Shown: positions 8,045 to 64,000 of the stretch, piece after piece | How positions within the stretch are numbered: position 1 is the stretch's first letter | Layout: each line of letters begins with the position of its first letter | NCBI GenBank assembly: GCA_964016885.1 | Contig: OZ024746.1 | Span: forward strand, 98,394,001-98,458,000 | From: Eledone cirrhosa | Taxonomy: Eukaryota | Direction: 5' to 3' | DNA length: 64,000 bases | The notes under the pieces: generated by a model | The model's input: the letters and a program-made list of their open reading frames with translations, nothing else | What the model was told of the DNA's origin: nothing | The model's database searches: none | Position numbers and translations under genes: made by a program

Positions 8045-8047
<3 letters not shown>

Positions 8048-15327: not shown

Positions 15328-15444
15328 GCTTCCACCGCCCTGCTCTTTGCTGAAATATATATATATTATTGTCCTTGCTCTTTCCTCTTGTCATTTAATC
15401 TTCCATACATTGTAGGCCTTCTAAATATTTAGACTTAAGTTTTC

Positions 15445-18341: not shown

Positions 18342-18417
<76 letters not shown>

Positions 18418-20442: not shown

Positions 20443-21028
<586 letters not shown>

Positions 21029-21032
21029 TATA

Positions 21033-21212
21033 GGTGAATTGGCAGTGTCGGTAGAGGGTTGGACGCCATGCTTTCTAACATAGTTACGTCCCTTTACGAT
21101 CTGAGTTCAAATCCCGCCGAGGTTAACTTTGCCTTTCATCCTTACGGGGTCGATAAAATAAAGTACTAGTAATGTACTGGGTAATTGCTGGCCTTGTGCC
21201 TAAAGTAGAAAC

Positions 21213-21216
<4 letters not shown>
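21033..21216 (+). mobile_element. Main-family SINE, full length
   Basis: A-box TGGCAGTGTCGG, B-box GAGTTCAAATCC, core and tail. Confidence 0.9.
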
Positions 21217-21246
<30 letters not shown>

Positions 21247-21507
21247 AGCATTGTGAAATATATAATTAGAATTGTTTGAAGGAAAGCCAGTACAATGTGA
21301 GTTAGAAATAAAGGCGTGAAAACAAAGCAAAACAACAGTTTGCAGTTTTATAATATATTTCATGATATTTCGGGAGCAGACAACTCATCAAAATAGAGAA
21401 AATGAAATGTATTGGTGATAATGAACCGAGTTTCTCAAATATTAGTTGCGAATCAATCGTTCTTTCCCTTCTTTCATTTTAATGCTGATTCTGTTTAGTA
21501 AGAGGAA

Positions 21508-22190
21508 ATAATTGTTTCTACTTTAGGCACAAGGCCAGCTTTTATCCAGTGCATTACTGGTATTTTATTTTATCGACCCCGTAAGGATGAAAGGCAAAGT
21601 TAAGCTCGAATAATGATTTCTGATTTCGTATAAGCCCAACAATTTTGTGGGAGAGGAAAGTCGATTTAATCGAAACCAGTGTATTACTGGTACTTTATTT
21701 TATCGACCTGGTAAGGGTGAAAGGAAAAGCTAACCTCGGCGGGATTTGAAATCAGAATGCAAAGGGACGTAACTCTATACTGCAAAGTATAGTCTCTTCA
21801 AAAGTAATTTTGAAAATAATTGTTTCTACTTTAGACACAAGGCGGAATGTCGATTAAATCGACCCCAGTGCATTACTGGTGCTTTATTTATCAATCACCT
21901 CGTAAGGATGAAAAGCAAAGCTAATCTCGGTGGGATATTAACTCAGACCGTAAAGTGCCGTAACTCTGTACTGCAAAGCATGATGTCCGATGCTCTACTG
22001 ATTCTGCCAATCCACCGCCCTAGTAGTAGTAATAATTGTTTCTACTTTTGGAACAAGGCCAGCAATTACAAGTACATTACTGGTTCTTCATTTTATCGAC
22101 CCCGTAAGGATGAAAGGCAAAGTTAATCTCGCGAAATTTGAACTCAGAACGTAAAGGGCCACAACTCTACGTAAAGGGCGACGCTCTAAT
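21508..22190 (-). mobile_element. Head-to-tail cluster of four main-family SINEs
   Basis: Tails AATAATTGTTTCTAC.. at about 21508,21611,21817,22031, each followed by the core. Confidence 0.85.
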
Positions 22191-23614: not shown

Positions 23615-25778
23615 TATCTAAAACAATAATATTTAATTTAAAAAAATACTAATAATGAAATATTACGTGTTATTGACGAAATAGGGGATGAATATTTTTG
23701 ACAAATCAACGCCTGTTTATATGCCTTAGCAACGACAGTGAAGCATTATCTTGGTGATAGTAGAGATATTAACAAGAACAAAACACCACCAAAAATACCA
23801 TCATATATAACTAAAATAGAAAAAAAGATTGCTGACCTACGAAAAACCATAGGATATGTGACAATGCTCCTTATATGCAAACAAACACAAAAAACTTCAC
23901 TCCTCACCAACAAAGAGTGAAAAATAAAATAGAGACGATGTTTGGTAACAGTAGAACCAGAACTCTTCAATATAAGCTGATCACCCTCAAACTGGAATTG
24001 AGAGCTGTTAGCGAAAAACGCCGATACCTGAAGAAGGTAGATGAAAGAAAAGTACTTAAAAAAAGATTCAGACGAAACCAAACATCAGTCTATAGAATAT
24101 GAGAGGCAAAATAATAAGTGTCACTGAGGCCCCATCCCAGAAAGATCGATTCCTTTTGGAGAAAAATATGGGGTGAAAAGAAGAATTTCATCCAAGATGC
24201 AGTGTGGCTAAAAGAAATCCAAAAGAACTATTGCTCCTACACTACAACAAATACATACGAAATAAGTGAGGGTACCTTTGAGACTGTGATAGGAAAACTC
24301 CAAGATAAGAAAACACCAGGAAGAGACATGATTGTCGGCTACTGGTACAAAAAACTGATATTCTATCGGAGGTATCTTACTGACCTCTACCAACAAGTTC
24401 TTAAGGGAGATACACTTATACCAGAATGGTTGACATTAGCACAAACATTACTGGTCCCCAAGAACAAAGACACCCACTTGGCAAAAAATTACCGACCCGT
24501 TGCATGCCAGAACCTGATGTATAAGACGTATACAGCCGGCCTAAACCTATTCCTCCAAGATCACTGTGAAAATAATAACATCATCACAGATGAACAAGCA
24601 GCTGGAAAGAAAGGGGTTTGGGGATGTGCTGAACAACTCCTAATCAACAAAACTGCGATGTCGGAGGTGCGGCAACTCAGGAGGAATATGGCTACAGTCT
24701 GGCTGGATTACAGGAAAGCTTTTGATTCTGTTCCCCACTCTTGGATGATAGAGGCCCTCCGACTTGCTAAAGTCCCAGACATTATTATCAGAGCCATAGA
24801 GAGGCTGTCTTCTTCTTGGGCTACTATCCTAAGGTTAAAGACAGAGAGGGAGGACTCTATTTTCACTGATAAAATAAAATATCGCAGGGGTATATTTCAG
24901 GGGGACAGTCTCTCTGTGATATTGTTCATCTTGTCATTAAACCCCTTGGCCTTTCTGCTCAAGAAATGTGAGTGATACATCATTGACTCGCAGGAGGATA
25001 GAAATACGAACCTAACCCATAATTTCTTTGTGGATGATCTGAAACTCTATGCCAAGAACATAGATGGGATGAAGAAAAATCTTGACCTGGTTACACCATT
25101 CTCAAAGGATGTAGGAATGGAGTTTGGCCAAGATAAATGCTCATATATGACTGTAAAGCGGGGAAAAGCAACAACCCAATCTAGCAAAATGTGTATCAAT
25201 GGCCTAACTGTTTCACCAATATCTGATGAGGACTGCTACAGATACCTGGGGATAGATGAGAATATATCCCATAATGGGGAACGCGTAATCAGGGAATACT
25301 ACACCCGATTAAGAAAGATCTGGTCATCGGAACTCTCTGCGCAAAACAAAACAGTGGCTCACAATGTGTTTGCTGTCCTAACACCAACATTTGGAATACT
25401 CAATTGGAGGATAGACGGAATCCGAGCAGTTCATGTTGGAACTCCAAAAATACTAAACAGCACCGGAAACCTCCACATCAACAGTGACATAGACCGCCTT
25501 TACTTGAAACGTAAGCAGGGAGGCAGAGGCCTAACATCAGTCCAGACTGCATTTGAATGTCGCATCATATCCCTCCGACAACATCTACGAACATCGAAGC
25601 GTAGGAGCCCGTCTCTCGAGCAAGTTTATCTGCATGAAACAGATAAGATCATGAGTTTGGAAGGAACTCCTCGAGAGATATTCCCTGTGTGATAATCAAA
25701 AACTCACACCCAGGGAAGTCGCTCATCAGTATCGCAGTGAATCCATGGAGGAAAAACTGTATGCTTAACAGCAAAAAG
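23615..25778 (+). mobile_element. R4/Dong-type LINE fragment (RT), paralogue of 47700-51224
   Basis: NYRPVACQN, WLDYRKAFDSVPHSW, GIFQGDSLS, FVDDLKLYA; stops and frameshifts. Confidence 0.9.
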
Positions 25779-32722: not shown

Positions 32723-33244
32723 TGATCGCCGAGCTACGTACTTTATTGAACACCAAAGACCCTTCGGAGGAACCCCATTTCGGCCGCTTGTATTGCATTA
32801 AATTTTGAATTTCAATTTCTTGTTTATGCCTGGATTTTGGAATTAATTTAAGATCATATTATTAGCTCCCATGGTGCTGCTTGTGATTTAAGGACCCTTC
32901 ACACTCATTTCTGTAAACAGTAGAGATGCATCAATAAGAAAAGAATGCCTAGTGAAAAAATCAATTATGTAGAGCTTTCTCCGAAAAAAACTTTTGATTA
33001 TCTCCATAATTAAATGAAAAAGAATTATTTGTCGTCCTTTGGATTTATTTTAGATGTTTGAGGAATACTGTGATTGGCTCAAATGAAACAACATTCGTAA
33101 TGTTAATATCTTAACGGAAAGTTGCAGGGACAACTTTATGATACTGATACTAATATTGGCAGATTTGAGCTTTATAAAGTAATCTTGAAGAAATGTATTA
33201 AGAAATTAGAGCTTTATGAAGACGTCAGTTAAATTGATGGCAGT

Positions 33245-33960
33245 ATTGGACTGGTACTTTATTTTATCGACCTCGGAAGGATGAAAGACAAAAGTTGACC
33301 TCAGTGGGATTTGAACTCTGAACGTAAAGAACTGCAACTAATTGCTGTGAAGCATTTTGTCCGAGGCTCTAACGATACTGCCTATACACTTCCCTGCTTG
33401 CTCTTAATATAATTGTTTCTTCTTTCGGCACAAAGCCAGCAATTACCCCAGTGTATTACTGGTACTTTATTCTATAGACCCCGTAAGGATGAAATTAACC
33501 TCGGCGAAATTTGAACTCATACCGTAAAGGGCCATATCTCTTTGCTGCAAAGCATGGCGTGCGACCCTCTACCGATACTGCCAATTCACCAACCATTAAT
33601 ATAATTGTTTCTATTTTAGGCACAAGGCCAGCATTATCCCAGTGTATTACTGGTACTTTATTTTATCGACCCCGTAAGGATGAAAGGCAAAGTTAACCTC
33701 GGCGGGATTTGAACTCAGACCACAAAGGGCCGTAACTCTTTGTCGCAAAGCATGGCGTCCGACCCTCTACCGATACTGCCAATCCACCTTATGAACCCAG
33801 GTTATATCTAACTGAGTACGTCACTTGTGGTTATTTTATTGGTTCAGAAAGAATGAAAGGTAAAGTTGACATTGAGGGGACTCGAAATCAGAAGGTAAAG
33901 CACCACCACCAAATAACCCAGTGTTTAGTCCGGCACTCTGCTATTTCTACTGCTCCACCA
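33245..33960 (-). mobile_element. Head-to-tail cluster of four SINEs
   Basis: Cores at about 33250,33460,33650,33830. Confidence 0.85.
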
Positions 33961-34947: not shown

Positions 34948-35275
<328 letters not shown>

Positions 35276-35407: not shown

Positions 35408-35720
35408 CAAAGGGATATTTAATTTGTTGGTAATTCGACAAATATATATATTTATAACAGATTCGAAGCACTCGACAGATTTTCTGGTTGTACCTTGTTG
35501 TAAAAGTTGTACCTTGAAATATATATAATAGAATAAATATGGTTTTATAAATATAGCTTCCATTTATTAATATCATTGATATATATTTATATATATATTT
35601 ATATATATATATTTATATGTATATATTTATATATATATTTATATATGAGTGTGTGTATGTTTTATGTATTTCCGTAATAAAGGTAAAGGAAAGAAGAGTG
35701 TTCTATGTATAGTACAGAGC

Positions 35721-37293: not shown

Positions 37294-39381
37294 TCTTTGA
37301 GTCTCAGTCATTGATGTTATTTAACTGGAAAGTTTGTTGAAATGAATATCAAGACACTACCTGCAGCCTCAGATATTCAGGACCTATCGGAGGGTTCTTG
37401 TTGTTCCCAACAAGCATGCCTTTTGAAGTGTTCCAAAAAGCGGGCTGGACTAATCCTCTTTAACCATCCTTGGAAACTCTTTGAGGTGGTACCTAGTGCG
37501 CCTATGACAATCGGGACGACCTTGACTTCATGGCAGTTCCAAATCCTTTTTACCTCCCACTTTAAGTCCTGGTATCAGTTAATTTTCTCCCTCTCCTTTT
37601 CTTGCACTCTCGTGTCAAAGGGGCAGGCTACATCTACAATCAGTCGCGATCTTTTTTCCTTGTCCAAAACCACCAGGTCAGGCCTATTGTGTTCTAATTT
37701 TTTGTCCGTTTGTATCCTAAAATCCCATAGCACCTTCACCTGATCGTTTTCTATCACCGACTCTGGCTTATGCTCATACCACTTCTCAGAATGTGGTAAA
37801 TTGTTTACTTTGCATAGGTGCCAGTGGATCACCCTGCCCATCACATCATATCTCCAGCCTTTATGGTGAGTCTGGGCTAGGTGTTTACACTCGGATAAAA
37901 TGTGAGCCAGTCACCTCTCTCTCTCCACAGATCCTACACAGTGGGTTGGCCTCCTCCTTGTAAATATGGTGTTTCAGCCACTTCGTTCTGAGGGCCTGCT
38001 CTTGCGCAGCCATTAGCATTCCTTCTGTAGCCTTTTTAAGGTCTCCTCTTTTTAACCAGTTCCATGTCTGTGGATCTCTAAATTCAGTTTTCTTAAAGAA
38101 GGTACTATGAAGGGATTTTTCATGAAGGTTGCTCTTCCTCCTTGTTGTTATTTCCTCCTTGGACATTCCCTGGTCTATTGTCTTCTCCTTCAGTACAATT
38201 TTGAGCATTGGCTCCCTACTGTCAGTCACGTATCTGTGCAGGTTGTTTTTCTCCCTCTGAACACAGTCCTCTATGCTGATTAGACCTCTTCCACCTTCAG
38301 ATCTCCTTAAGTAGAGTCTATCGACACCACTCCTTTTGTGGAACATGTTGTAGATAGCCAATAACTTCCTAGTCTTCCTATCCATTTCTTTTTTGTTCAG
38401 CAACATTCCATTTCAGAATTCCCGCACTGTACCTAATAATAGACACAGCTCGGGAATTTACTGCACTTATGACATTCCTATTATTTAGATGTGATTTTAA
38501 TACGCTCCTTACTCTCCGAATGTACTCTATCTTATCAATTCCTTCATTTTTTTGTTGTTCTTGATGTCATCTGGCTCCAGAACACCTAAATATTTGTATC
38601 CTTCTTCAGTGTCAATTTCCTTTATCATCTCACCTGTTGGTACCTGGATTCCGTTGCTTCTGCTCAATTTACCCCTCTTCATCACACTTACTAATACCAA
38701 ATTCCATACATATATCATTGCTGAAAATACGGACAGTGTCAACAAGTAAATCCAACTCCTTCTCACTCTTCCCAAAGATCGTCCATGAAGAGTAGGTTGT
38801 TGATGGTAAGTTCTCCTTGTCCCAACTTGTATCCTGCTCTCACTTTTCGCAATATAATGGTCAGGAGTATCAGGGCAAGGACAAATAGCAGAGGGGACAA
38901 ACTATCTCCCTGGAAGATACCTCTCTTGATCTTCACGCCTCCCAAGGATTCTCCACCCGATGTTAACTCTGTTTCCCAGGACTTCATACTTTTTCCCAAC
39001 AACTGTCTGATGTTATCTGCCACCTTGAAGATCTCTAGGCTTTTGGTTATCCAAGAATGAGGTACCATGTCGAATGCCTTTTTGTAATCTATCCATCCCA
39101 TAGCAAGACCAGTGTGTCTCCTCTAGAAATTCCTCATTACCATCTTATCAATAAGTAACTGGTCTTTTGTACCACGGCTCTTCTTGAGGCATCCTTTCTG
39201 TTCGTCCGGTAACAAGTTGTTTGTGTGGAGGTGATGGTAGATTTCCTCAGACACAATGCTTGTTAACAGTTTCCACATTACGAACAGACATGTGATAGGT
39301 CTACAGTTGGTAACATCATTACCCTTGATTCGGTCTTTCATTACCAGAACTGTGGTACCTTTTGTCAACCACTCTGGTACC
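37294..39381 (-). mobile_element. Dong-like R4-clade LINE, 5'-truncated, in a (TAA)n tract
   Basis: WIDYKKAFDMVPHSW, GIFQGDSLSP, LLFMDDL, CRICGE..SH, RPDLVVLDKE..DVACPFD; ATT/TAA repeats at 37271-37293 and 39382-39394. Confidence 0.9.
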
Positions 39382-39394
39382 TATTATTATTATT

Positions 39395-41540
39395 GTTCGG
39401 AGGCCTCTTGGCGGACATCTACTGCAACTGGCAACAGAACGGGAGAATTCCCAGCTCTGTGAGCCGAGGAGCGGTGGCGCTGCTGAAAAAGGATCCGAAC
39501 AAGGGGGATAACATAGATAATTTCAGGCCCATAACTCTTCTAAACACAGAGTTCAAGACTTTGGCCAAGGTGTTAGCAAAGAGGCTGGCGCTTGTCGTAG
39601 GTGGTCTGGTAGGAGAGGCGCAGACATGCGCCATTCCCGACAGATCCATCCACGACAACCTCCACCTCATGCTATACATCGTGAAGCGGGTAGCTAGGGA
39701 ACCTGGCACGGGTGGGTCCTTGATCAATTTAGATCAGTCGAAAGCTTTCGATAGGGTCGACCATCGTTATCTGGCGGCAGTCCTGAGGGCAGCTGGCGTT
39801 GGGCCCGTCTTCAGAGGCTGGATCGCTGCCATCCACAGTGACATCTGCCCTGTGGTGAGAGTGAACGGTCACCTTTCGGAACCGTTCAACATCATGCACT
39901 CGGTCCACCAAGGATGTCCCCTCTCGGCCCTCTTGTACGTATTGACTCTCGAGCCATTACTGCACAAACTGGAGACGTTGAGGGGGGGGGGGGTCCCGCG
40001 CGAACTAGGATGCGGAAGATCCGTGTCAGCATATGCAGACGATGTCACCGTAGTGGTGTCGAACGCCAAATACATCGAGGCTATCGGCACTACACTAAGA
40101 GAATACGAAGCGGTGACAGGAGCAATGATCAACCAGGAAAAGTCGATGGGCCTGCAGCTCGGCACCTGGGGAGGCAGGTCCATGCCGTCCAACGGCGTCG
40201 TCGGGCGCTGGACGGACGGACCAGTTAAATTGTTAGGAGTCTGGTTTGGTCTGGACCTCCAGACGAACAAAAACTGGGACGAGGTGGCGTGCAGGGTGGC
40301 TTCTCTCATCCAGAAATGGGCGGAGAGAAAGCTATCCCTGAAAGGTCGAGCGGAGGTGGCTAAGGCGTACACCGCGTCCGTCATCTACTACCGCCTGACC
40401 GTCGTGCCTTGTCCTAAGCCCCGTTTGACTGCGCTGAAGCGTTTGCTCTTTCGCTTTTTGTGGAAGCGACGCGCTCCGATGGTCAGGCGGTCCATCTGCT
40501 GTCAACACCCGCTACGTGGAGGGCTGGGCATCCGTGGCTAATGATGCGCAGACACGCGCTCAGGCTACGACATCTCCACCTCTTCCTCGACGGTGATCAG
40601 GTGTGGTCGCCGTTTGCTAGACGCGTCTTTCCCCAGCTCATCTCCTTGACGGAGCTGCAGTCCTGGGTCAAGCGAAGACCTAGAGGGAACGCTTGGAGAC
40701 TGGAATGTCTTCAGGCGCTCACAGCCCTCGGCCAATCGGACAATGTGATCGGTGGAAACTCCACCTTGGCTTTCTATAGAGGATTAGTGGAGAGGAAGAG
40801 CGACGACGTACTTGGGGAAACTCGAGGCGTCGACGAAAATCAACTAGCCAATCTCTCTGGAAGAACTTTCGGGCCGGGGCCTATGGACAACTTCCAGAAA
40901 TCCCTGGCCTGGCAGTGCTACTGAGGAGCTTTGCCAGTTCGGGATAAACTCTACAGGCATGGAATTGCCGTCAGCCGGGCATGTCCGAGATGCGCGCAGG
41001 GCGACGAAACCGTCCTGCATGCACTCGTCCAGTGTCCGAGCATTGCTGACTTATGGGTTTATGTCGAACACCTGCTGTCGCGTGCAGAACGGATCCGACT
41101 ATCAGCTGAGTCCATCGTGAGGATTGCCCCGCCCTCTTCCTTTAGCCGGGAAGGGCAGGCAGTTTTTATCTGTCTAGTGGCCATGGCGAAAGAGATAGTA
41201 TGGTGGACACGTCTGAAAGGGCTGAAGACGAGCACTTACCTCTTCGATGATGCCCTGATTAACTTTTTCCAATTTCATTTGAAAAGGAAAATCAGGATAG
41301 AGAGGAAAGTGCTCTCTTCCCAGCATTTTGTTGAAAGATGGGTGAGAGAGGCAAGAATGGCCCGAGTGAGTGGGGCTACTCTGAGTATGTGTCTGTAAAT
41401 TGAAGGTAGAAAACTGGGAGAGGGCACTTGCCTTGGTGGTCAGGGTCACTGTGGCTTTTTAATGGGCTTTCTCCACGATGGCCCTCGGAAGTCTCCCCCC
41501 TATTGGGGAATTTTTCATTGTTCTATTATTACATCCTCTG
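39395..41540 (+). mobile_element. Tx1/L1-clade LINE, 5'-truncated (RT + C-terminal Cys-rich domain)
   Basis: NFRPITLLN, LDQSKAFDRVDH, QGCPLS, AYADD, LSLKGR, GGLG, CPRC..ETVLHALVQC; one frameshift near 40535 and a stop at 40922. Confidence 0.9.
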
Positions 41541-43668: not shown

Positions 43669-44605
43669 ATGATGATCATACATTATACAAATGATAACAG
43701 ATCAATTATTAAGTGATAAAATAATTTATATTCATCGCACAAGAATAGATTTCAAATATCGGTAAAATTTACGTTAACCTCTGGAAATAAAAATCGACAT
43801 TTAAATATAGAATCGGAGAAAAAATTCATCTGAGAATTATTTTGTTGCAACCATTTGCTAAATCATTACAAAGTAATATTTTCGAAATGAAAGCCAAATG
43901 AGAAAAAATAATATTTATTAAATACTTCCAGCTGAAGCATTATATCAAGTATTATTCATATTGAAGTGGGGAAAAAAGTAGATAAAATATTCTATTAGTT
44001 ACAATACAATTAGTTAAATCCATGAAAATGAATTATTCTTCTACTGTATTCAGTAATGAAAACAATAGGCCGCATACTTATCATCTTGATTGTTTAAAGG
44101 TTTGCTTTTTACCTGCAGCTCTTAACAGTTTTCTATCACGATCAATACATTTGTTGTTGTTGTTGTTGTTGTCGTTGTTGTTGTTGCTGTTGTTTCTTCT
44201 TCTTCTTCTTCTTCTTCTAGATTCTTTGTAATATTTCAAATGCAATTATATTCGAATTTCTAACGTAGAAAAATTGAACAGTCATATATTTCAATGCTAA
44301 TTTTTTATCTTAGTTTTCTCTGATGCTTTCTGTATTTTTATAAGTAGACTAAGCCTGAAAAAAGTCATCTCTATTCTACACTGTTTCGAGGTCTGCTACG
44401 GTAGATGTGATAAACTATTCACTTGATATAGTATCAGCCTTCTACATAATTATATTAAGGGAATATCTTTGGAGTAACGTTACGCGATAAAGTGCGAAGC
44501 TCGGAGATCAGAACATTCCAGGTAGAGCCGCTACTTCTCCGAATTGAGAAGAAGAAGAAGAAGAAGAAGAAGAAGAAGAAGAAGAAGAAGAAGAAGAAGA
44601 AGAAG

Positions 44606-44636
<31 letters not shown>

Positions 44637-45341
44637 GCTTCACCTCAATTTACTTCAGAACATCTAATATACTAAAGCTGTTAAATGTGGCCTCTGTTTC
44701 ATTTATCTTTGGTGTATATAAAGATATAATTCATTGTAATTCATCTGCAAGTAACCACACTAATTCAAGCATTAGAAAACTTTAGCAGTGAAATCTAATA
44801 ATATTCAGAATATAATGGTATATTCTGGCTATTTAATAATGGTTTCTAGGGTATTTTTAAAACCTGGCGGAGTTCAACACCTCTTCAAGTCTGAACACAG
44901 TAGATTTATTCCAGAGAAGGATAAATAAAGTGAGAGAAATGAAGTGAGAAAGGGTTACTCTGCCGATTCGCCGCCATTCAGAATATAACACTTTATTTAA
45001 TAAACTCTCTTGAGTTATATTCCATTTAGTACTATTTTCTTATTCTAGTTTCCTGTCATTACTTCAGTCAGACGTAACTCATAATGCTGAACAGATTATA
45101 ATTATCTGAAAATTAAAGATAAAGTGAAACAGACTTAAAGATAAAGTGAAATAGACTTCTAGAAACATCGACCAGAGAACTTCCGTCGGTTTTGACAATG
45201 GGTATTTCAGTTGGTTGATCAATGAAATAGCCTGTTGATGAAATTATTTTTTACTTGTTTAAACCATTTGACTGTGGCAATGCTGGGGCACCGCCTTCAT
45301 TTCATCGATTATATCGATCACAATGACTTAGTATGGTATTT

Positions 45342-45520
45342 ACTTTGTTAATCTTGTTAGAAATTGATGTGTTAAATTCTGATCTGCAGTTGATGTGTGG
45401 TGTGAGTTTGTTAATGATAATCGTTTCCTTAATTCTAAGATTTCCTAATCTTCGAGCACTAGCTTCAATCGTAACTGTTATGATTTTGTTGTTGTTTCTG
45501 CATTTGTCTATGTGTTGTTC
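45342..45520 (-). pseudogene. PLE GIY-YIG C-terminal fragment
   Basis: HIDKCRNNNKIITVTIEASARRLGNLRIKETIIINKLTPHINCRSEFN aligns with HLVKCKNTDKNITVRIETKERNLGNLRIKEALIIDRTHPPINNRLELN of the 54.5-kb ORF. Confidence 0.8.
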
Positions 45521-45747
45521 AATGAAATAACCTATTCATGAAATTAACTGGCAACTGACATAGCATTCCACAGACACATATACCCTTAACGTAATTCTTA
45601 GTGAGATTCAGCAAGATACAGTGTGTCACAAAGTTGGTCCTTTGAATTACAAGTACTTGAATTACAGATATATATATTTGACTTCTCGCACACGAGGTGA
45701 AATATTCGTTCGTGTAGCTTTTAGTTTTAGCTGTTTGTCACATTTAA

Positions 45748-45843
45748 TTTTATCTCTCGCTGATGATGCCTACGGATTATCTGTTACAAACACAAGTTCC
45801 AGGGTGAAACAGATTAAATCTCTAATCTGTCCGGGAGATGAAA
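45748..45843 (+). ncRNA. Type I hammerhead with stable stems I and III, canonical core
   Basis: Stem I 12 bp TTTTATCTCTCG/CGGGAGATGAAA; CTGATGA 45760; GAAA 45806; stem III ACAGATTA/TAATCTGT; GUC 45829-45831. Confidence 0.85.
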
Positions 45844-46099
45844 TAGTTATTGAAACGGTCTGTACACTTTACTCTTTATTCTGTATTTTCCGTTTGCTTC
45901 AGGTTAAATTTGTCAAACCAACGTGGTACTTCAACCCTCGTAATTTTAGACACACAATTTACTGTGTTTATTACAACATATATTTAATGCTCAGTATTTA
46001 TACTTAGAGCTTGTTAATTACAGGGTATCAATATGAGTTATTAACTCTGCCTTTTATTTGTATATATATATATGTGTGTGTGTGTGTATATACTTGTCC

Positions 46100-46189
46100 A
46101 CGTGCCTGAATGAGGGGGCCAGTTTAAAACTGCCTCCTCCATTATACAGTGGTGGCCATGACTGGACCCTGAAACCATTGGTAACACGT
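46100..46189 (+). ncRNA. Type I hammerhead with core insertion (CUGAAUGA)
   Basis: ACGTG/CACGT stem I; CTGAATGA 46106; stem II GGGG-CCAGTT/GACTGG-CCCT; GAAAC-CATTG-GTA 46171-46183. Confidence 0.6.
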
Positions 46190-46216
46190 ACATGTTAACT
46201 GTATGAAACCTTGATT

Positions 46217-46271
<55 letters not shown>

Positions 46272-46274
<3 letters not shown>

Positions 46275-47675
46275 AACAAGTAAGACCCCGACGGCTGAGC
46301 TCAAGCCGTTTCGACGGCTAATTCTGTACTGAATGAAAAATTAATTCTGGTATTTAAATAGCCGAACTTATCAAGGGGTAATTCCATATATGGTCAAAGA
46401 GATAATCACCAGGATTGGTCACATCACAAGTTAGTAGTAAATCTGTGATGGCAAGTTGGTGGGGGAAGGGGTAGCTAAACCTGCCAGTAGGAGAAAAGGG
46501 GAGAGGGGTGGAGTAGACCCATTCATGCGTTGGTAGTGCCAGCTACAGCTGGGTGTGAGGTCAAAGAGGATACTGGGGAGGGGGAGGGGGAGGAGGTCGA
46601 AACGGTAAGTAGAACAATGAAAGGTAAAACTGTAAAAGGTACTGAGAGAGAAAAAAATATAAGCAAAATCTGGTTACTAAGACTTAAGTCTCTCGCTATT
46701 GCTAGACTGAAGAAATACATAAATAAATAAATAAACAAATAAGTGAATAAAAGAATAGATAAATAAATTTAAAAAAATATATATACATATATATATATAT
46801 AATGTAGAATAAAAAAATAAATGATAATAATAGAAAAAAACTAGGTGGGACGGAAATAAAGGGACCCTTATACGAGGTATAAGTGCGTGTATCGTACGGT
46901 GACGGGTCAACAAAAGGGGGGCCAGAATACTAAAGAGACTACCACGAAAATAATAAAGGTTTCTACCCCAAACACAGGGCCTGCAACCACCCAGTGCAAG
47001 AAAGTAAACTAGTACGAGAATATAATTCAGGGTCCTGCAAAAAAATACTGGTGCTAACTCTAAGGGTACCGCCACGAAACAAAAGGTCTTATACAAGCTA
47101 CATGAAAGATCGTACGAAGTAAAAGTAAAGAACGGAAAATTAATACAGGAACACCCCACCCCACCCCACCCCCCACTCCCCCAAAAAAGGGAAAAAGAAA
47201 AAAGAGATACTGGATAAACGAGAAATTAAAGCAAAGATGCCACTAAGAAATATAGAAGGCACGGAAAAAGGGGACAGCGGTCGGAGAAGGGGGCGAGTAT
47301 CCGAAGTCTAACACCTTTGCTATAAAAAGCGGAGTCAGCCACATCTATCATAGAATAGGGGGGGGGGGGTGCTGAAGCTACAAGGGACCGATGGGCTACC
47401 TTGGGTGGGCGAGAAAGAGACAACGACAAAGAAAGGGAACTGGGGTAGAAGGACTAGGGAGGGATGGGGAAGGAGGAAATATAGAGGAAGCGATAAAAGA
47501 ATGTAAAAGAAGATCTTACGTCTCCATAGGCAAGCAGGGGTTACCCATTACAAAATAGGCAAGTGGGGTGTTATAGCCCTAGATTACCCCCCCCCCCCCG
47601 GGTCATTATGGGGTTTGAGGGCGAGGTAAGTCCTACGTAATCGGTGTTTACATGCAGTAACCAGTTCATGAACAA
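46272..47675 (-). mobile_element. PLE 3' end (ORF C-terminus, long 3' UTR, pLTR hammerhead)
   Basis: ELVTACKHRLRRTYL resembles the PLE terminal ELxSxCRH motif; ends in an HHR abutting (TA)n. Confidence 0.65.
46285..46379 (-). ncRNA. Type I hammerhead, U3-A8 core variant
   Basis: Minus strand ACCCC-TTGATAA-GTTCGGCTA..TAGCCGTC-GAAAC-GGC-ttgagctca-GCC-GTC-GGGGT. Confidence 0.8.
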
Positions 47676-47699
47676 CATGTGCTACAGGTCGCCATGCTA

Positions 47700-50600
47700 C
47701 TAGAGTTCGTAGTAGCCAGGTCGAACAGCGCCTTGAAACAACTATGCCTGTAAGAAACTTAACACCACCTGTACCATCTAAGTCTACCTCGAATGCTGGG
47801 GAAAACACTATCGATAATAATAATAATCGAAGAAATAATAATAATAATAATCGAAGAAATTTGACACCACGTGTACCATCCGAGTCTGCCTCGACTGTTG
47901 TGGAAAATACTATCGATAATGATAATAATCAAAAGTATAAACAATTGAAAATTTCCCTCAACGAAATCTTCCAAAGAGAAATTAGTTCATGTATAAATAT
48001 CTCTCTTGCTGAACGTCTTAAACCGACAATGTTTAATAAAAAACCAAATAATGAAATATTACGTGTTATTGACGAAATAGGGGATGAATATTTACGACGG
48101 ATAAAAACCCCAACATTTTGGCAAATCAACGCCTGTTTATATACCTTAGCAACGACAGTGAAGCATTATCTTGGTGATAGCAGAGATATTAACAAAAACA
48201 GAACACCACCAAAAATACCATCATATATAACTAAAATAGAAAAAAGATTGCTGTCCTACGAAAACCCATAGAATATGTGACAATGCTCCTTACATGCAAA
48301 CAAACACAAAAAAAACCTCACTCCTCACCAACAAAGAGTGAAAAATAAAATAGAGACGATGTTTGGTAACAGTAGAATCTTCAATATAAGCTGATCACCC
48401 TCAAACAAGAATTGAGAGCTGTCAGCGAAAAACTACCTGAAGAAGGTAGATGAAAGAAAAGTGCTTAATAAAAGATTCAGACGAAACCAAACATCAGTCT
48501 ATAGAGATATGAAGAACAAAATAATAAGTGTCACTGAGGCCCCATTCCAGAAAGACTTAGATTCCTTTTGGAGAAAAATATGGGGTGAAAAGAAGAATTT
48601 CAACCAAGATGCAGTGTGGCTAAAAGAAATCCAAAAGAACTATTGCTCCTACACTACAACAAATACATACTAAATAAGTGAGGGTACCCTTGACACTGTG
48701 ATAGGAAAACTCCAAGATAAAATAACACCAGGAAGATTGTCGGCTACTGGTACAAAAACTGATATTCTATCGGAGGTAACTTACCGCCCTCTACTAACAA
48801 GTTCTTAAGGGAGATACACTTATACCAGAATGGTTGACATTAGCACAAACATTACTGGTCCCCAAGAACAAAGACACCCACTTGGCAAAAAACTACCGAC
48901 CCATTGCATGCCAGAACCTGGTGTATAAGATGTATACAGCCGGCCTAAACCTATTCCTCCAAAATCACTGTGAAAATAATAACATCATCACAGATGAACA
49001 AGCAGCTGGAAAGAAAGGGGTTTGGGGATGTGCAGAACAACTTCTAATCAACAAAACTGCGATGTCGGAGGTGCGACAACTTAGGAGCAATATGACTACA
49101 GTCTGGCTGGACTACAGGAAAGCTTTCGATTCTGTTCCCCACTCTTGGATGATAGAGGCCCTCCGACTTGCTAAAGTCCCAGACATTATTATCAGAGCCA
49201 TAGATAAGCTGTCTTCTTCTTGGGCTACTTTCCTAAGGTTAAAGACAGAGAAGGAGGACTCTATTTTCACTGATAAAATAAAATATTGAAGGGGTATATT
49301 TCAGGGGGACAGTCTCTCTGTAATAGTATTCATCCTGTCATTAAACCCCTTGTCCTTTCTGCTCAAGAAATGTGAGGGATACATCAGTGGCTCACAGGAG
49401 GATGGAAATAAGAACCTAACCCATAATTTCTTTGTGGATGATCTGAAACTCTATGCCAAGAACATGGATGGGATGAAGAAAAATCTTGACCTTGTTACAA
49501 CATTCTCAAAGGATATAGGAATGGAGTTTGGCCAAGATAAATGCTCATACATGACTGTAAAGCGGGGAAAAACAACAACCCAATCTAGCAACATTGTCAT
49601 CAATGGCCTAACTGTTTCACCGATATCTGATGAGGACAGCTACAGATACCTGGAGATAGATGAGAACATATCCTATAATGGTATCTGTAATAAGGAACGC
49701 GTAATCAGGGAATACTACACCCGATTAAGAAAGATCTGGTCATCGGAACTCTCTGCGCAAAACAAAACAGTGGCTCACAATGTGTTTGCTGTGCCTGTCC
49801 TAACACCAACGTTTGGAATACTCAATTGGACGATAGACGAAATCCGGGCAATTGATGTTGGAACTCGAACAATACTAAACAACACCGGAAACTTCCACAT
49901 CAATAGTGACATAGACCGCCTTTACTTGAAACGTAAGCAGGGAGGCAGAGGCCTAACATCAGTCCAGACAACATTTGAATGTCGCATCATATCCCTCCGA
50001 CAACATCTGCGAACCTCGAAGCGTAGGAGCCCGTCTCTCGAGCAAGTCTATCTGCATGAAACAGATAAGGTCATGAGAGTTGGGAAGGAACTCCTCGAAA
50101 GATATTCCCTGTGTGATAATCAAAAACTCACACCCAGGGAAGTCGCCCAGCAGTACCGCAGTGAATCCATGGATAAAAAACTGCATGCCTATCAGCAAAA
50201 AATCCTCCATGGATATGTTGCCAGGAAGCTCCAGAGTGAGAGTAATATAGATAAAGAAAGTAGTCTATCTTGGACCAACAACCGCTATATTGGCTCCCAC
50301 TTTGAAGGATACGCTTTTGCAATCCAGGAACAGGAGATTAGCACGAAATACCTGATTCACAAAAGAGATAGGGATGCAGGTAAAACACCTACATGTGATA
50401 ACAAGTGCAGACTCTGCAGAATTAACATCGAAGATGTCACTCATGTCATCAGCAGCTGTTCAAAGATGTCATCGCGGTACTATCTACCTATGAGGCATGA
50501 TGTAGTGGCCAAAACACTGTACAATGCTATCCGTAAAAAAGATAGCCCCGATAATAAACACATTAAAAGCTAAAGCAATGTGGAAGACATCCATGTACAT

Positions 50601-51224
50601 AATATGAAAGAGTACTGGTGGAATGTTCCAGTAAAAACCCCAATAAAATGCAGGTATAACAGACCAGATATTATGATATGGGACAGGGAGAAGAAAGCAT
50701 GCACAGTAGTGGAAATTAGCTGTTCAGCAGATGCCAATATAATATCAAAGATTAGTGAAAAGGAGAATATTTATGCAGAACTGATGAGAAATCTGCAGAT
50801 ACTCCACCCTGATTACACCTTCAGATTTATGCCTGTGATTATTGGGGCACTGGGATATGTTAGTAACTGCCTCAATACAAATCTTGAGAAGCTAGACTTC
50901 ACAGGAACAGAAAGAACACAACTAGTTAGGAAACTACAAGTACAATCCATTAATGGAATAGTAAAAATATGTAAAACATTCCAAAAATAATCTAATAACT
51001 GCATATGCACATGTACAGATACAAAGCATATACACATGCACACATACAACTCAAAACATACACACCCACACATACAATAACATCCATATCTACACATGCA
51101 TGCATACATACATATCTACCTAGTTGATGTTGTGTAAATTCCAATGAGAGAGTCTTGTGTCTATGTTAGAAACCGACTCTCTCTCTATTGGTATAAAATT
51201 GTGAAATTATAAAACCAGAAGAAC
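47700..51224 (+). mobile_element. Near full-length R4/Dong-type LINE (RT, CCHC knuckle, RLE), inactivated
   Basis: RT motifs; CRLC..DVTHVISSC; RHDVVA; RPDIMIWDREKK..VEISC; several stops and frameshifts; 102-bp duplication at 47753/47855; ends in (CATA)n 51224-51324. Confidence 0.92.
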
Positions 51225-52139: not shown

Positions 52140-52326
52140 TGTGGATTGGCAGTATCGGTAGAGGGTCGGACGCCATGCTTTGACGCATGGAGTTACAGCC
52201 CTTTCCATTCTGAGTTCAAATCCCGCCGAGGTTAACTTTCCCTTTCATCCATACGGGGTCGATAAAATAAAGTACCAGTAATACACTGGGTAATTGCTGG
52301 CCTTGTGTCAAAAGTAGAAACAATTA
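52140..52326 (+). mobile_element. Main-family SINE with target-site duplication
   Basis: ATTAAATGATGATGATT at about 52124-52140 and 52323-52339 flanks the copy. Confidence 0.9.
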
Positions 52327-52344
52327 AATGATGATGATTCAGTG

Positions 52345-53103: not shown

Positions 53104-53165
<62 letters not shown>

Positions 53166-53697
53166 CGTTAGAATATGTGTAATAAGGCCAAGACAATGCA
53201 GATATGGACATAGAAAAAAGAATGCAATAGTGAAAGATATTGATGAGAATTCGTCTTTCACCTTGAATTTATTTAAATGTCCTTAATTTTCGAGATAATA
53301 TCTCTTCTTCGGAGGGAAGTAAAAGTCTCAGACCAGCGTCTAAATTTCCAATGAAGCCATGCTGACCGGAAATAGTATAGAGTTCTAACTTTAATATCAA
53401 AGAATTAAAATTAGGTGGGTAAAGAGTAGTCTCCCTTTAAGAGGGGTTTGTTTATGTTTTTGTTGTGTTTTTTTAAATTTTATATGCGTGCCTGTATATG
53501 TGTGTGGGAGAAAGCATGAAGGTGTAGGTATGTGGGTGTGTGTGTGTGAGTGTGGGAAGATAGGTCTAATCGTAAAAGTGGGGGGTATGTGTTATCTGGT
53601 GTTAGAACTGGTTTTGTGTGTGTATGTGTGAGAGAGAATAAGTGGAGGTGTGCGCGTGCGTGTGTGTGGGGTGTGTAAAGTGGGGCTAGAGGCCCTA

Positions 53698-54534
53698 TCA
53701 GGTTATAAATTGGGTGTTGAGCTCTAGTCTATTATTGATTGGTGGATGTGTTCTATCTATAATGAGTGCTTCCTTGATTCTAAGATTGCCGAGGTTTCTT
53801 TCCTTAGTTTCTATCCTAACTGTTATGTTTTTATCAGTGTTTTTGCATTTAACTAGGTGTTTCTTAAATGAGGAAGCGTTAGTATTGAGGTGTTCTTTTA
53901 TTCTTATGTGGAGTGGTCTGGTGGTGCTACCTACGTAGAAGTTGTTGCATTTGTCACACTCTAGTCTGTAAACTACGTAAGCCTGGTGGCATAGGTCTGT
54001 GTCGTTGATGGGGCAGTTGGCTAGTCTGCAGCAGTTGTCATGTCTGGTGGAGTGTCTCTTAGCTAGCCGTCCACGCAAAGAAGGACCCGAATGGGCCAGT
54101 TGAATATCCAGACCTTCTCGTCTGATGGCTCTGCGGATGGCTGTTGTTGTTTCTTCACTGAAGTGTGGGAGCTTCAGGAAGCAAGTGTTAGTGCCTCGGG
54201 TGTGGTGTCCTCTGTTCTTTCTGGCACGGTTTGTGGTGGATGTCGTGTATCCGTTCAGTTTGAGTACTTCCAGGAAATGTGTGGTGTGTGTGTCTCGGTC
54301 TCTGGCGTCGGTGCATTTGTTCTTGATACGTGCCAGTTCGTTCTTTATGTATCCGAACTTGGCACCGAGTGGGAGGGCCGATCTGAAATGTACGAACAGG
54401 TCCCTGCTGGCGGCTTTTTTATAGAAGCAGGTGTGGATGTTGCCTTCCTCTGTTACCCTGAGTTGGAAGTCCAGCAGGGATAGGGATCCGCGGTCATCGG
54501 GGTGTTCTATGCTGAACTTTATACTGGCGTCCAT
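53698..54534 (-). CDS. Mirror copy of the PLE GIY-YIG ORF
   Basis: Identical translation in the ORF track. Confidence 0.85.
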   Translation of the reverse strand: MDASIKFSIEHPDDRGSLSLLDFQLRVTEEGNIHTCFYKKAASRDLFVHFRSALPLGAKFGYIKNELARIKNKCTDARDRDTHTTHFLEVLKLNGYTTSTTNRARKNRGHHTRGTNTCFLKLPHFSEETTTAIRRAIRREGLDIQLAHSGPSLRGRLAKRHSTRHDNCCRLANCPINDTDLCHQAYVVYRLECDKCNNFYVGSTTRPLHIRIKEHLNTNASSFKKHLVKCKNTDKNITVRIETKERNLGNLRIKEALIIDRTHPPINNRLELNTQFIT

Positions 54535-54570
54535 GCTGGAGAATGTTGTGTATACACAACATTCTCCAGC

Positions 54571-55407
54571 ATGGACGCCAGTATAAAGTTCAGCATAGAA
54601 CACCCCGATGACCGCGGATCCCTATCCCTGCTGGACTTCCAACTCAGGGTAACAGAGGAAGGCAACATCCACACCTGCTTCTATAAAAAAGCCGCCAGCA
54701 GGGACCTGTTCGTACATTTCAGATCGGCCCTCCCACTCGGTGCCAAGTTCGGATACATAAAGAACGAACTGGCACGTATCAAGAACAAATGCACCGACGC
54801 CAGAGACCGAGACACACACACCACACATTTCCTGGAAGTACTCAAACTGAACGGATACACGACATCCACCACAAACCGTGCCAGAAAGAACAGAGGACAC
54901 CACACCCGAGGCACTAACACTTGCTTCCTGAAGCTCCCACACTTCAGTGAAGAAACAACAACAGCCATCCGCAGAGCCATCAGACGAGAAGGTCTGGATA
55001 TTCAACTGGCCCATTCGGGTCCTTCTTTGCGTGGACGGCTAGCTAAGAGACACTCCACCAGACATGACAACTGCTGCAGACTAGCCAACTGCCCCATCAA
55101 CGACACAGACCTATGCCACCAGGCTTACGTAGTTTACAGACTAGAGTGTGACAAATGCAACAACTTCTACGTAGGTAGCACCACCAGACCACTCCACATA
55201 AGAATAAAAGAACACCTCAATACTAACGCTTCCTCATTTAAGAAACACCTAGTTAAATGCAAAAACACTGATAAAAACATAACAGTTAGGATAGAAACTA
55301 AGGAAAGAAACCTCGGCAATCTTAGAATCAAGGAAGCACTCATTATAGATAGAACACATCCACCAATCAATAATAGACTAGAGCTCAACACCCAATTTAT
55401 AACCTGA
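54571..55407 (+). CDS. PLE RT thumb/linker + GIY-YIG endonuclease (5'-truncated, open)
   Basis: IKFSIE..LSLLDFQL..YKK..FVHFRSA; VVYRLECDKCNNFYVGST..RIKEH..KEALII..PPIN; in-frame ATG at 54571. Confidence 0.85.
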   Translation: MDASIKFSIEHPDDRGSLSLLDFQLRVTEEGNIHTCFYKKAASRDLFVHFRSALPLGAKFGYIKNELARIKNKCTDARDRDTHTTHFLEVLKLNGYTTSTTNRARKNRGHHTRGTNTCFLKLPHFSEETTTAIRRAIRREGLDIQLAHSGPSLRGRLAKRHSTRHDNCCRLANCPINDTDLCHQAYVVYRLECDKCNNFYVGSTTRPLHIRIKEHLNTNASSFKKHLVKCKNTDKNITVRIETKERNLGNLRIKEALIIDRTHPPINNRLELNTQFIT

Positions 55408-55789
55408 TAGGGCCTCTAGCCCCACTTTACACACCCCACACACACGCACGCGCACACCTCCACTTATTCTCTCTCACACATACACACACAAAACCAGTTC
55501 TAACACCAGATAACACCTACCCCCCACTTTTACGATTAGACCTATCTTCCCACACTCACACACACACACCCACATACCTACACCTTCATGCTTTCTCCCA
55601 CACACATATACAGGCACGCATATAAAATTTAAAAAAACACAACAAAAACATAAACAAACCCCTCTTAAAGGGAGACTACTCTTTACCCACCTAATTTTAA
55701 TTCTTTGATATTAAAGTTAGAACTCTATACTATTTCCGGTCAGCATGGCTTCATTGGAAATTTAGACGCTGGTCTGAGACTTTTACTTC

Positions 55790-55824
55790 CCTCCGAAGAA
55801 GAGATATTATCTCGAAAATTAAGG
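55790..55824 (+). ncRNA. Minimal pLTR hammerhead, U4C core (mirror at 53281-53315, minus)
   Basis: CCT-CCGAAGA-A-GAGAT att ATCTC-GAAAATTA-AGG. Confidence 0.55.
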
Positions 55825-55985
55825 ACATTTAAATAAATTCAAGGTGAAAGACGAATTCTCATCAATATCTTTCACTATTGCATTCTTTTTTCTATGTCCA
55901 TATCTGCATTGTCTTGGCCTTATTACACATATTCTAACGTTTATACCTCATTACACAATGTTTCAAGTGAACTATAACCTCCTCC

Positions 55986-57930
<1,945 letters not shown>

Positions 57931-58237: not shown

Positions 58238-58327
58238 AAATGCTTCTCTGATGATCGTTGCTTTTCCATTAATATCCTCGTGATATTTAATGTTTTGCAC
58301 CGTGAAACTGTACAGTTAGGGCCATTT
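58238..58327 (+). ncRNA. Type I hammerhead, canonical core
   Basis: Stem I AAATGCTTCT/AGGGCCATTT; CTGATGA 58248; long stem II with CATTAATATC/GATATTTAATG; GAAA 58304; palindrome ACTGTACAGT; GUU site. Confidence 0.75.
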
Positions 58328-58525: not shown

Positions 58526-58621
58526 TGACAAGTAAGTATGTTTTGAAACAGTGAGCAGGTTTGAAATTAGAAAATGGAATAGCTTTCACCGTATTTTTTA
58601 CTAAAGGAATTTTAGCCTGAT

Positions 58622-58679
58622 AAATGGAAAAAGATGAGTATTGACGTACATGTACGTCAATACTCATCTTTTTCCATTT
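58622..58679. repeat. Perfect 58-bp palindrome
   Basis: AAATGGAAAAAGATGAGTATTGACGTACA|TGTACGTCAATACTCATCTTTTTCCATTT. Confidence 0.95.
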
Positions 58680-58685
58680 CCATCT

Positions 58686-62519: not shown

Positions 62520-63135
62520 TTGTGACATTCACATAGCCTGCGCCGCATCGGCGTTTCCTTGAGGCTCGGCCTCCGGATCTGCCAGCCACACCAATGTCGC
62601 TGCGAATCCACCGTGGACTCTTTCGGCCTCCACCCGCTTTCCTGTCGCCACAGTGCCGGCCGCCTTCCACGCCATGCTGCCCTCAACGAGGTCATAAAGC
62701 ATGGCTTGGACGCTGCGGGATTCCCTTCCGAGCTCGAGCCGGTGGGGCTGGACCGAGGGGACGGCAAAAGGCCAGATGGCATGACCATCTTCCCGTTCCG
62801 CGGTGGCAAACCCGTCTGCGGTGCTACTTGCACCGACACTTTCTGCAGCCGCACCCTGGTGCAGTCTGCGACTAACCCAGGTTCTGCTGCACGTCGGGCT
62901 GAGGAGGCCAAACTCCTCAAATACCGGTCGCTCTCCGACAGGTTTGCGGTTGTACCCCTGGCAGTGGAGACTTCTGGTGTCCTTGGCCCTAGGGCTACCT
63001 CCCTACTCACCACCATAGGCGCTGAGCTGGCCAGCCGCAGGTGTGAGCCCCGCGAGTTGGAGTGGCTTTTCCAGCGCGTCTCCCTTGCCGTCCTCCGGGG
63101 AAACGCCTTCTCCATCCTGTCCACCGGAGCTGTGG
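62520..63135 (+). mobile_element. CRE-type LINE C-terminal region (Zn knuckle + RLE)
   Basis: LRLG..CRC..GLHPLSC..RHAALN..KRPDG..ETSGVLG..QRVSLAVLRGNA. Confidence 0.85.
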
Positions 63136-63243
63136 TAGAGTCCCATCACGTATCATTCCATATTTAAGTATGTGCACTATCACATATTTCACAGCCTAAT
63201 ACTTACTGTGTGCCTAAATAAGTGTTTATTATACGTAAAACAA

Positions 63244-63462
63244 GGGCGGTGGATTGGCAGTATCGGTAGAAGGTCGGACGCCATGCTTTGCAGCATAGAG
63301 TGCTGGCCCTTTCTGATCTGAGTTCAAATCCCGCCGAGGTTAACTTTGCCTTTCATCCTTACGAGGTCGATAAAATAAAGTACCAGTAACGCACTTGGGT
63401 CGATTTAATCGACTTTCCGCTCCCCCAAAATTGCTGGCCATGTGCCTATATAAGAAACCATT
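63244..63462 (+). mobile_element. Main-family SINE, full length
   Basis: GGGCGGTGGATTGGCAGTATCGG head, B-box, core and tail. Confidence 0.9.
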
Positions 63463-63751
63463 ATATGTAAAACATTGTTTATAGAATGACAAAAGAACAT
63501 TATCTCTGATCGAGACGAAGCGAAGGTGTATTTGAATACATCTAAAAATGAGAAAACTGATCAACAGTTGACTGTTTCAACGGCTGTTCATATTATTTCT
63601 AGGTTTATATTCACCTTTATTCTTAATCAGGCTGTGTTACTCTTATCACTAATTAGATGTATATCAAATGTATATTTTTTATACTAAAATGTTTGATATC
63701 CATGCTGCATGTCAGTCTATATTAAATATTAAACAACCATTCTTTAATTAT

Positions 63752-64000
63752 TGGCAGAATCAGTGGAGCGTCAGACACCATCCTTCGTAGCATAGAGTTC
63801 TGGCCTTTTACGTTCTGAGTTTAAATTCCGCTGAGGTTAGCTTTGCCTTTCATCCTTACGGGGTCGATAAAATAAAGTACCAGTAACGTACTGAGGTCGA
63901 TTTAATCGACTTTTCCCTTCCCCAAAAGATTGCTGCCTTGTGCCTAAATCAGAAACCATTATTGGCAGAACCAGTGGAGCGTCAGACACCATCCTTCGTA
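63752..64000 (+). mobile_element. Tandem main-family SINEs (second runs off the window)
   Basis: Head TGGCAGAAYCAGTGGAGCGTCAGACACC at 63752 and 63963. Confidence 0.85.

Follow-up and report, generated by a model that had tools for sequence, protein, structure and literature searches.

The 64,000-nucleotide stretch of the Eledone cirrhosa genome analyzed here (NCBI GenBank assembly GCA_964016885.1, contig OZ024746.1, positions 98,394,001 to 98,458,000, forward strand; hereafter the window, in whose numbering all coordinates are given) carries three different type I hammerhead ribozyme motifs within 633 bp: H1 at 45747-45844 and H2 at 46100-46189 on the plus strand, and H3 at 46285-46379 on the minus strand. 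Three such motifs had been placed at 45748..46379 by an initial annotation, and their presence, type and coordinates were confirmed. All three were among the 14 matches of a descriptor scan over both strands of the window, and were further assessed with an energy score and by folding. We consider it probable (roughly 0.8) that they are the 3'-end pseudo-long terminal repeat (pLTR) ribozymes of three separate 5'-truncated copies of Penelope-like elements (PLEs) that integrated in succession at shared TA microsatellites. The elements are probably of the Hydra type, which targets (TA)n.

H1 and H3 each possess the YUGANRA, GAAA and UH elements, the 3-8 pair and an open stem I within a three-helix layout, and H2 fits the same type only if its A6a insertion and a 1.1x2.1 mismatch are allowed. 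Stem I of H1 (45747-45759/45832-45844) is 13 bp long (11 Watson-Crick and two G.U pairs), or 12 bp when counted from 45748, as had been annotated. Its core strand CUGAUGA, followed by a U, occupies 45760-45766 and GAA 45806-45808, while the 39-nt domain II runs from U to U and ends in U11.1. As reported initially, helix III (45809-45830) has 8 bp and is non-palindromic, here with a 6-nt loop, and is followed by GUC, with the predicted scissile bond after C45831. Stem II consists of a G.U, two C-G and a U.G pair, of which the centroid structure keeps 2 bp (domain II, -6.3 kcal/mol). Domain II includes a stretch closely matching the helix III arms (45772-45784; P 0.001), which hints at a local duplication, and the long helix III may thus be an accident of this copy.

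The core of H2, CUGAAUGA at 46106-46113, contains the extra A that had been noticed before and that corresponds to the published A6a insertion; cleavage would follow GUA. Helix III is a 9-nt palindrome with a central U and the arms ACCA/UGGU, and stem I has 5 bp, yet a C2.1xA1.1 mismatch, not mentioned in the initial annotation, adjoins the cleavage site. Within its 57-nt domain II, an inverted copy of the core and of the stem II arm pairs with G8/A9 (P 0.006), so that an internal fold-back captures the core. H3 has the U3-A8 core UUGAUAA (46374-46368), GUC, a 55-nt domain II, a helix III of 6 bp within a 19-nt near-palindrome, and a 5-bp stem I that can be extended to 46273-46385 past an internal loop; the predicted cut falls between 46290 and 46289. 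Its stems II and III have CGGCU/AGCCG in common (not significant, P 0.18). A hairpin sequestering the GAAA of H3 was considered and found possible but minor (P 0.015), and a compensatory change in its helix III palindrome was rejected, as the two arms of the copy at 5900 disagree and thus point to a single-copy mutation. The outer arms of helix III read ACAG/CUGU in H1, ACCA/UGGU in H2 and ACGG/CCGU in H3, and U11.1 is present in H1 and H2.

The energy score, a custom design made after the motifs had been seen, was calibrated on 100 block-shuffled windows, which yielded 83 matches in total and a best score of 23.65. H1 (34.6) and H3 (31.2) both exceed this value, and H2 scored 18.9, with matches of at least 18 expected 0.08 times per shuffled window. 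In a cruder pair-count scan, the score of H1 was reached in one of 60 shuffled windows, that of H2 was unremarkable (expectation 0.28 per window), and H3 escaped detection because its stem II starts 3 nt in. Folding z-scores (200 shuffles each) were -3.19 for H1 (no shuffle as good), -2.24 for H3 (four) and -1.58 for H2 (17). The Rfam search of the window returned no match at the gathering threshold, leaving all three motifs undetected, and none of the 19 weak matches within 45000-47000 was a hammerhead; the long domain II is the likely reason. A chance origin of these folds, from repeats rich in A and T, would suit the empty Rfam result and the modest z-score and pair-count expectation of H2, but it is extremely improbable given that H1 and H3 surpass every match of the shuffled windows and given the family copies, the adjacency to TA repeats and the likeness to Hydra hammerheads described below.

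The three motifs belong to separate units. On the minus strand, at 45362..45523, lies a C-terminal GIY-YIG fragment of a PLE (tblastn, 52% identity to the PLE open reading frame (ORF) of the window, E 8e-11; profile search, E 3e-14), which constitutes a unit distinct from H1 and is arranged head-to-head with it. This fragment is bracketed by a 33-bp direct repeat (45214-45246 and 45514-45546, 300 bp apart), and is followed by a candidate fourth hammerhead (~45150-45210, minus strand) that was rejected as too decayed to call (z 0.25). The plus-strand sequence at 45547..45746 is non-coding, has no copy in the window and is likely the 5'-truncated 3' untranslated region (UTR) of the H1 unit, its boundary being inferred; a protein search with an overlapping 147-aa frame gave 10 candidates, none at an E-value of 1 or better. 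The 3' tail of H1 (45845..46060, plus strand) ends at (TA)n and has diverged relatives at 4301-4557 and ~18185-18345, both on the minus strand; nhmmer gave E-values of 0.045 and 0.008, and the alignment scores of 95 and 68.5 were not reached by any of 300 shuffles. A (TA)n/(TG)n microsatellite (46061..46092) separates H1 from the H2 unit, which spans 127 bp on the plus strand (46093-46219) with a microsatellite on either side. A second copy of this unit was not found in the window, nor was one of the H1 core. The H2 (left) and H3 (right) units stand tail to tail and share as their end a (TA)26 tract at 46220..46272. Beyond H3, a pyrimidine-rich, non-coding stretch without clear copy in the window (46386..47600, minus strand) is likely the long 3' UTR of its unit; it stops where a plus-strand long interspersed nuclear element (LINE) begins near 47600, cutting off the sequence upstream of H3. 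From its reverse transcriptase (RT) and endonuclease motifs, we take this LINE to be Dong/R4-like. A link between it and H3 was rejected: the two are on opposite strands and 1.2 kb apart, and H3 is absent beside the LINE copy at 23619-25777.

Relatives of these units within the window reveal how they are built. Copies of the 3' half of H3, without the core, lie at 5905-6012, 20483-20586 and 20947-21022, and a further tail-only piece was found at ~6630-6708. All three loci are fold-back palindromes that have (TA)n on either side and a longer tail on just one, and their centres (palindromes at 5900-6020, 20480-20600 and 20940-21030) fall at stem II twice and at GAAA once, which suggests self-priming of the complementary DNA (cDNA) at these hammerhead stems. 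The H1-tail relative at 4301-4720 is likewise a fold-back pair in (TA)n. Its arm aligns from exactly the first base of H1 after the cut, with the centre 1 nt further 5', and could be a footprint of ribozyme cleavage; this is suggestive only, as just one of the seven palindromes examined has an arm starting at the scissile-bond position, and the other hammerhead-bearing palindromes derive from uncut RNA.

PLEs are marked by inverted pairs of 5'-truncated copies, by tails on one side and by insertion into microsatellites (PMC8557442), and the same layout is seen in the H3 family at three loci and in the H1 family at 4301-4720. It recurs with an ORF attached in a perfect inverted pair of 5'-truncated PLE copies elsewhere in the window (53160-55990). 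In such an origin, a GIY-YIG endonuclease would nick AT-rich DNA, and reverse transcription would begin in the tail 3' of the hammerhead and end prematurely. Only hammerhead and tail would then be deposited, frequently as two fold-back arms. Tandem transcripts of the parent element would be cleaved by the ribozyme behind GUC or GUA. No ORF with RT and GIY-YIG was found upstream of H1, H2 or H3 on the same strand by tblastn or profile search, and a scan for RT and endonuclease motifs gave nothing credible there; the sole PLE coding remnant recovered nearby was the neighbouring endonuclease fragment at 45362-45523. This is expected of 5'-truncated copies, which predominate in PMC4209133.

The closest described counterparts are the hammerheads of the Hydra clade (Craig et al. 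2021, PMC8557442; e.g., Hydra-1_oBim, Penelope-1A_NV, Penelope-x_HM), which are type I, lie near the 3' end and adjoin (TA)n, as here; (TA)n is preferred by 26 of the 27 Hydra families. In the table of that study (File S2), helix III begins with AC and ends with GU in 25 of 25 families, and U precedes GAA in 17. Helix III is of the AC..GU form in H1, H2 and H3 as well, U11.1 occurs in two of them, position 17 is A, U or C, and the ACCA-N-UGGU helix III of Hydra-1_oBim has the same arms as H2. The interpretation of U11.1 as CpG decay was dropped given its presence in those 17 families. Further similarities exist with the minimal hammerheads of metazoan PLEs (Cervera and De la Peña 2014, PMC4209133), namely an extra nucleotide after A9, G.U or U.U at 10.1-11.1, a U-rich 5' flank, solo motifs stemming from truncated copies and opposite-strand pairs 100-700 bp apart.

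Hammerheads in the window are closely tied to TA repeats. From several scans, 13 loci were compiled by hand, counting inverted twins as one and including two decayed or half motifs; weak matches at 30974, 45833, 18872, 61712/61713, 9835, 59660 and 8380 and the remnant at 45150 were left out. Eleven of the 13 loci end at most 250 nt upstream of (TA)5+, compared with 15.7% of random points (none of 15,000 random sets did equally well), and the tails of H1, H2 and H3 reach (TA)n after 217, 31 and 13 nt. Three starts within 538 bp have a P of 0.017-0.082 when nine to 15 loci are placed uniformly. If the loci are instead placed beside TA arrays, P rises to 0.19-0.51 (merged arrays) or 0.40-0.70 (unmerged), and under TA targeting such closeness is ordinary. 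It is very unlikely that the cluster represents one composite element, e.g., an integrated viroid-like RNA with ribozymes of either polarity or, like Terminons, a terminal module with several ribozymes. The position of H1 and H2 on one strand and of H3 on the other within 633 bp, their rank as the three top scores of the window and the low P under uniform placement would agree with this, but microsatellites keep the three apart, the H3 and H1 families have pieces at three and two loci, respectively, that lack the other hammerheads of the trio alongside, and a similar mixed cluster of different hammerhead families exists at 5900-6710.

Several points weigh against an origin in Hydra-type PLEs. 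As PLE coding sequence is missing directly upstream, both the PLE and the Hydra labels rest on anatomy and motif likeness, the latter label being drawn from the hammerhead motifs of units that have no ORF attached. H2 is without a relative in the window. Helices III of 6-8 bp and domains II of 39-57 nt exceed every Hydra row (3-4 bp; at most ~26 nt). The three best scores of the window all lie in one cluster, which TA targeting alone leaves unexplained. The 13 loci were selected by hand, and their own tail lengths entered the TA-targeted simulation. Finally, insertion into (TA)n is shared by other PLE clades, Naiad among them. Cephalopod Naiads have this target too, and two of them bear 'HHR_half_core' notes (PMC8557442); a Naiad origin was rejected since the 3' ends of five cephalopod consensus sequences (Obim, Ovul, Omin, Esco, Adux) looked unlike ours by eye. 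Five of six hammerhead motifs of the window were not found in the searched portion of the supplement of that study, and the sixth matched coding-like sequence only; no bacterial or archaeal genome searched held an exact match to a helix III pattern of the H3 family.

The lack of an upstream ORF in all three units, together with the mere 127 bp of the H2 unit between its microsatellites, would also be compatible with non-autonomous elements similar to retrozymes or short interspersed nuclear elements (SINEs), consisting of a hammerhead and short flanks and spread via circular RNA by a PLE enzyme. Animal retrozymes have been proposed to be derivatives of PLE pLTRs (bioRxiv 10.64898/2026.07.22.740005), invertebrate retrozymes commonly have type I hammerheads that cut as monomers (PMC7761336), and the non-LTR retrozymes of animals (PMC7229834) resemble our units in carrying type I hammerheads within repeats, some of them monomer-active. 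Such an origin is unlikely, though: those retrozymes form tandem units of ~300 bp and have canonical contacts between loops I and II, neither of which is seen here. In 44400-47800 there is no tandem unit longer than 22 bp, and hence no array of 150-400 bp units each with a hammerhead, H1 has no visible retrozyme-type loop I/II contact, and the relatives are fold-back pairs with one-sided tails, i.e., the PLE pattern.

The UUGAUAA core of H3 had been taken for a second, independent U3-A8 covariant; the core stands, and the other U3-A8 motif is UUGACAA at 1183-1225 (plus strand). The claim of two unrelated families is not supported: the two motifs share the bases flanking helix III on both sides, and H3 is the best match of the 1183 motif among 10 hammerheads of the window (score 33 vs. 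15.6-28.8). The margin is small, so kinship is suggestive and falls short of proof; each family has a single complete, core-bearing copy in the window. U3-A8 preserves the 3-8 pair and was probably inherited within a PLE lineage instead of arising twice here. Nor does the double change offer the new argument for selection that was proposed: selection on the 3-8 pair was already established, including by swap rescue in a PLE hammerhead (PMC11167929), and two motifs add no test to it. A decayed motif of another family at ~3420-3466, with an uncompensated U3-G8 and GAAG, indicates that dead copies do accumulate single changes. Both odd cores are already known. Natural U3-A8 variants were described as compensatory and active, A6a as having low activity and U10.1.U11.1 as tolerated (Perreault et al. 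2011, PMC3088659), and these are the changes found in H3 and H2, although there in other hosts and in motifs not described as PLE-borne. About 1,300 PLE-type motifs of Schistosoma mansoni have U3-A8 (PMC4209133), and two families of this kind, UUGAUAA and UUGAAAA, appear in Figure S3 of that study. The pair is absent from all 25 Hydra families tabulated in PMC8557442, which have C3-G8, and its presence in Hydra-type motifs is thus a small addition.

How each ribozyme would behave rests wholly on nearest-neighbour prediction. The minimum free energy (MFE) structure of H1 is the hammerhead with 0, 30 or 100 nt of flanks (strict-fold probability 0.15-0.19). The proposal that H1 is the likely monomer-active member is upheld insofar as its helix III is predicted to be stable in the monomer (pair 15.2-16.2, P 0.91), but this does not set it apart, since the predicted MFE of H3 as a monomer is a hammerhead too (P 0.97; strict-fold probability 0.05-0.18). 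With -6.7 kcal/mol for the helix III hairpin of H1 against -15.0 kcal/mol for its self-duplex, there would be little to gain by dimerising, and helix III stays intramolecular in the two-copy MFE. H1 is plausibly monomer-competent, as is H3. H1 is predicted to be a slow cutter as a monomer, having a long helix III, no tertiary brace and a weak stem II. A loop I/II contact is required for high hammerhead activity at low Mg2+ (PMC6155905); no such tertiary contact is visible in H1, whose stem I is unbroken and has no bulge, and with its weak domain II activity at low Mg2+ is doubtful. For H3, the helix III self-duplex reaches -30.7 kcal/mol, and two copies together adopt the classic dimer as their MFE structure, which is more stable than two monomers by 16.5 kcal/mol. 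Cleavage of H3 is predicted in the monomer or, more readily, in a helix III dimer, and it is also the best dimer-former. The MFE of H2 is not a hammerhead, either as a monomer (fold probability 2e-6 or lower) or as a dimer. It is likely a decayed copy of the dimer type, predicted to be misfolded or crippled, and the low-activity A6a, the stem I mismatch and the competing hairpin make it look like decay and not like a selected variant.

The long helices of H1 would also be accounted for if it had been retained by the host as a functional ribozyme, for RNA processing in an intron or UTR. Consistent with this, both long helices (stem I, 13 bp; helix III, 8 bp) have stayed intact, whereas the tail differs widely from its two relatives in the window. 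This is nevertheless highly improbable: stem II is its weakest part and stem I includes two G.U pairs, the relatives may represent other subfamilies, and a nearby host exon was not identified. The closest functional analogues of H1 are PLE hammerheads of Serpula lacrymans and protists, which have a large helix III, no recognisable tertiary contact and cleave as monomers (PMC4209133). The Serpula ribozyme does so at 1.97 per min at 10 mM Mg2+ and 0.16 at 1 mM, and type I hammerheads active as monomers are common in fungal PLEs. The likeness to H1 concerns structure, and these PLEs differ in being telomere-associated, endonuclease-deficient and of non-animal hosts. Long loops are known from the PLE-X hammerheads of Selaginella.

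Hammerheads elsewhere in the window share part of these traits, and domain II spans 39-84 nt in six motifs of the window as a whole. The U3-A8 motif at 1183-1225 has an 8-nt palindromic helix III, predicted to allow cleavage as a dimer only, and sits between 82% identical repeats 308 bp apart (938-1046 and 1246-1363). Helix III is also palindromic in three other plus-strand motifs, at 2082-2187 (domain II 79 nt), 58244-58321 (49 nt) and 15257-15367 (84 nt), the last being a possible third U3-A8 (UUGAAAA) whose helix III is microsatellite-like. A head-to-head inverted pair of one hammerhead family occupies 14608-14710, of which the motif at ~3420-3466 is a decayed copy. A fold-back family in microsatellites (35075-35270 and 58560-58680) contains a minimal hammerhead 3' half with GAA and a 4-nt palindrome.

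The window as a whole is repeat-rich, with 33 frames of at least 150 aa, mostly microsatellite or retroelement, RT domains at 24118, 39267, 48798 and 49290 and a GIY-YIG domain at 54484. The PLE pair at 53160-55990 is centred at 54552, with (TA)n at both ends, inverted GIY-YIG ORFs (53698-55407), U4C hammerheads (53281-53315 and 55790-55824) and a tail ~40 nt longer on one arm; its protein (54553-55404) has 18 relatives, of which the sole named one is from Octopus bimaculoides (60% identity). A decayed PLE on the minus strand (8045-10100) resembles Hydra-1_Obim by eye, with agreement around the RT motifs of its ORF (8739-9836, minus strand), downstream of which lie a hammerhead (~8090-8150) and (TA)n; related motifs occur at 6187-6247 and 35511-35571. 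Copies of LINEs were observed at 47600-51190 and 23619-25777 (plus strand) and at 37450-39380 (minus strand), all presumably Dong/R4-like, while we take the LINE at 39267-41398 to be Tx1/L1-like and fragments at 62526-63167 to be CRE-like. A 69-bp tandem array (13750-14440) was noted with the CRE-like fragments, and an abundant SINE-like repeat of ~190 bp is present at 1-160 and about 15 further loci (e.g., 21030-22170, 33240-33790, 52140-52330 and 63240-63960).

The trio and its two core variants add little in themselves, being real motifs with an ordinary origin on a TA target. Helices III of 6-8 bp and domains II of 39-57 nt may be modestly new for PLE-type hammerheads of animals. No helix III of 6-8 bp was present among the 56 metazoan motifs aligned in PMC4209133, where it is absent or a short palindrome in contrast to the long, non-palindromic one of H1, or among 26 Hydra rows of PMC8557442. 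Beyond the latter study, no literature on cephalopod PLE hammerheads was found, and papers on variants may already hold forms with long helices or U3-A8. If long domain II variants were common, descriptor and Rfam surveys would have undercounted such ribozymes. A more ambitious proposal, which we regard as rather unlikely, is that in a cephalopod-type lineage of animal PLEs a long helix III and a long domain II are family-wide traits of hammerheads that are active as monomers in vivo and escape standard descriptors, and that 4301-4720 is the footprint of reverse transcription off a ribozyme-cut RNA end. The latter, if true, would be direct evidence of PLE hammerheads cleaving transposition templates. 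PLE hammerheads are weak in vitro (PMC4209133), and in the one reconstituted system the hammerhead was protein-assisted and dispensable for insertion, with RNA-seq ends absent at the cut site (PMC11167929). Their function could be tested more cleanly with an animal PLE hammerhead that cuts unaided, and if 5' truncations throughout a family accumulated at the scissile bond, in vivo cleavage would be evident from DNA alone.

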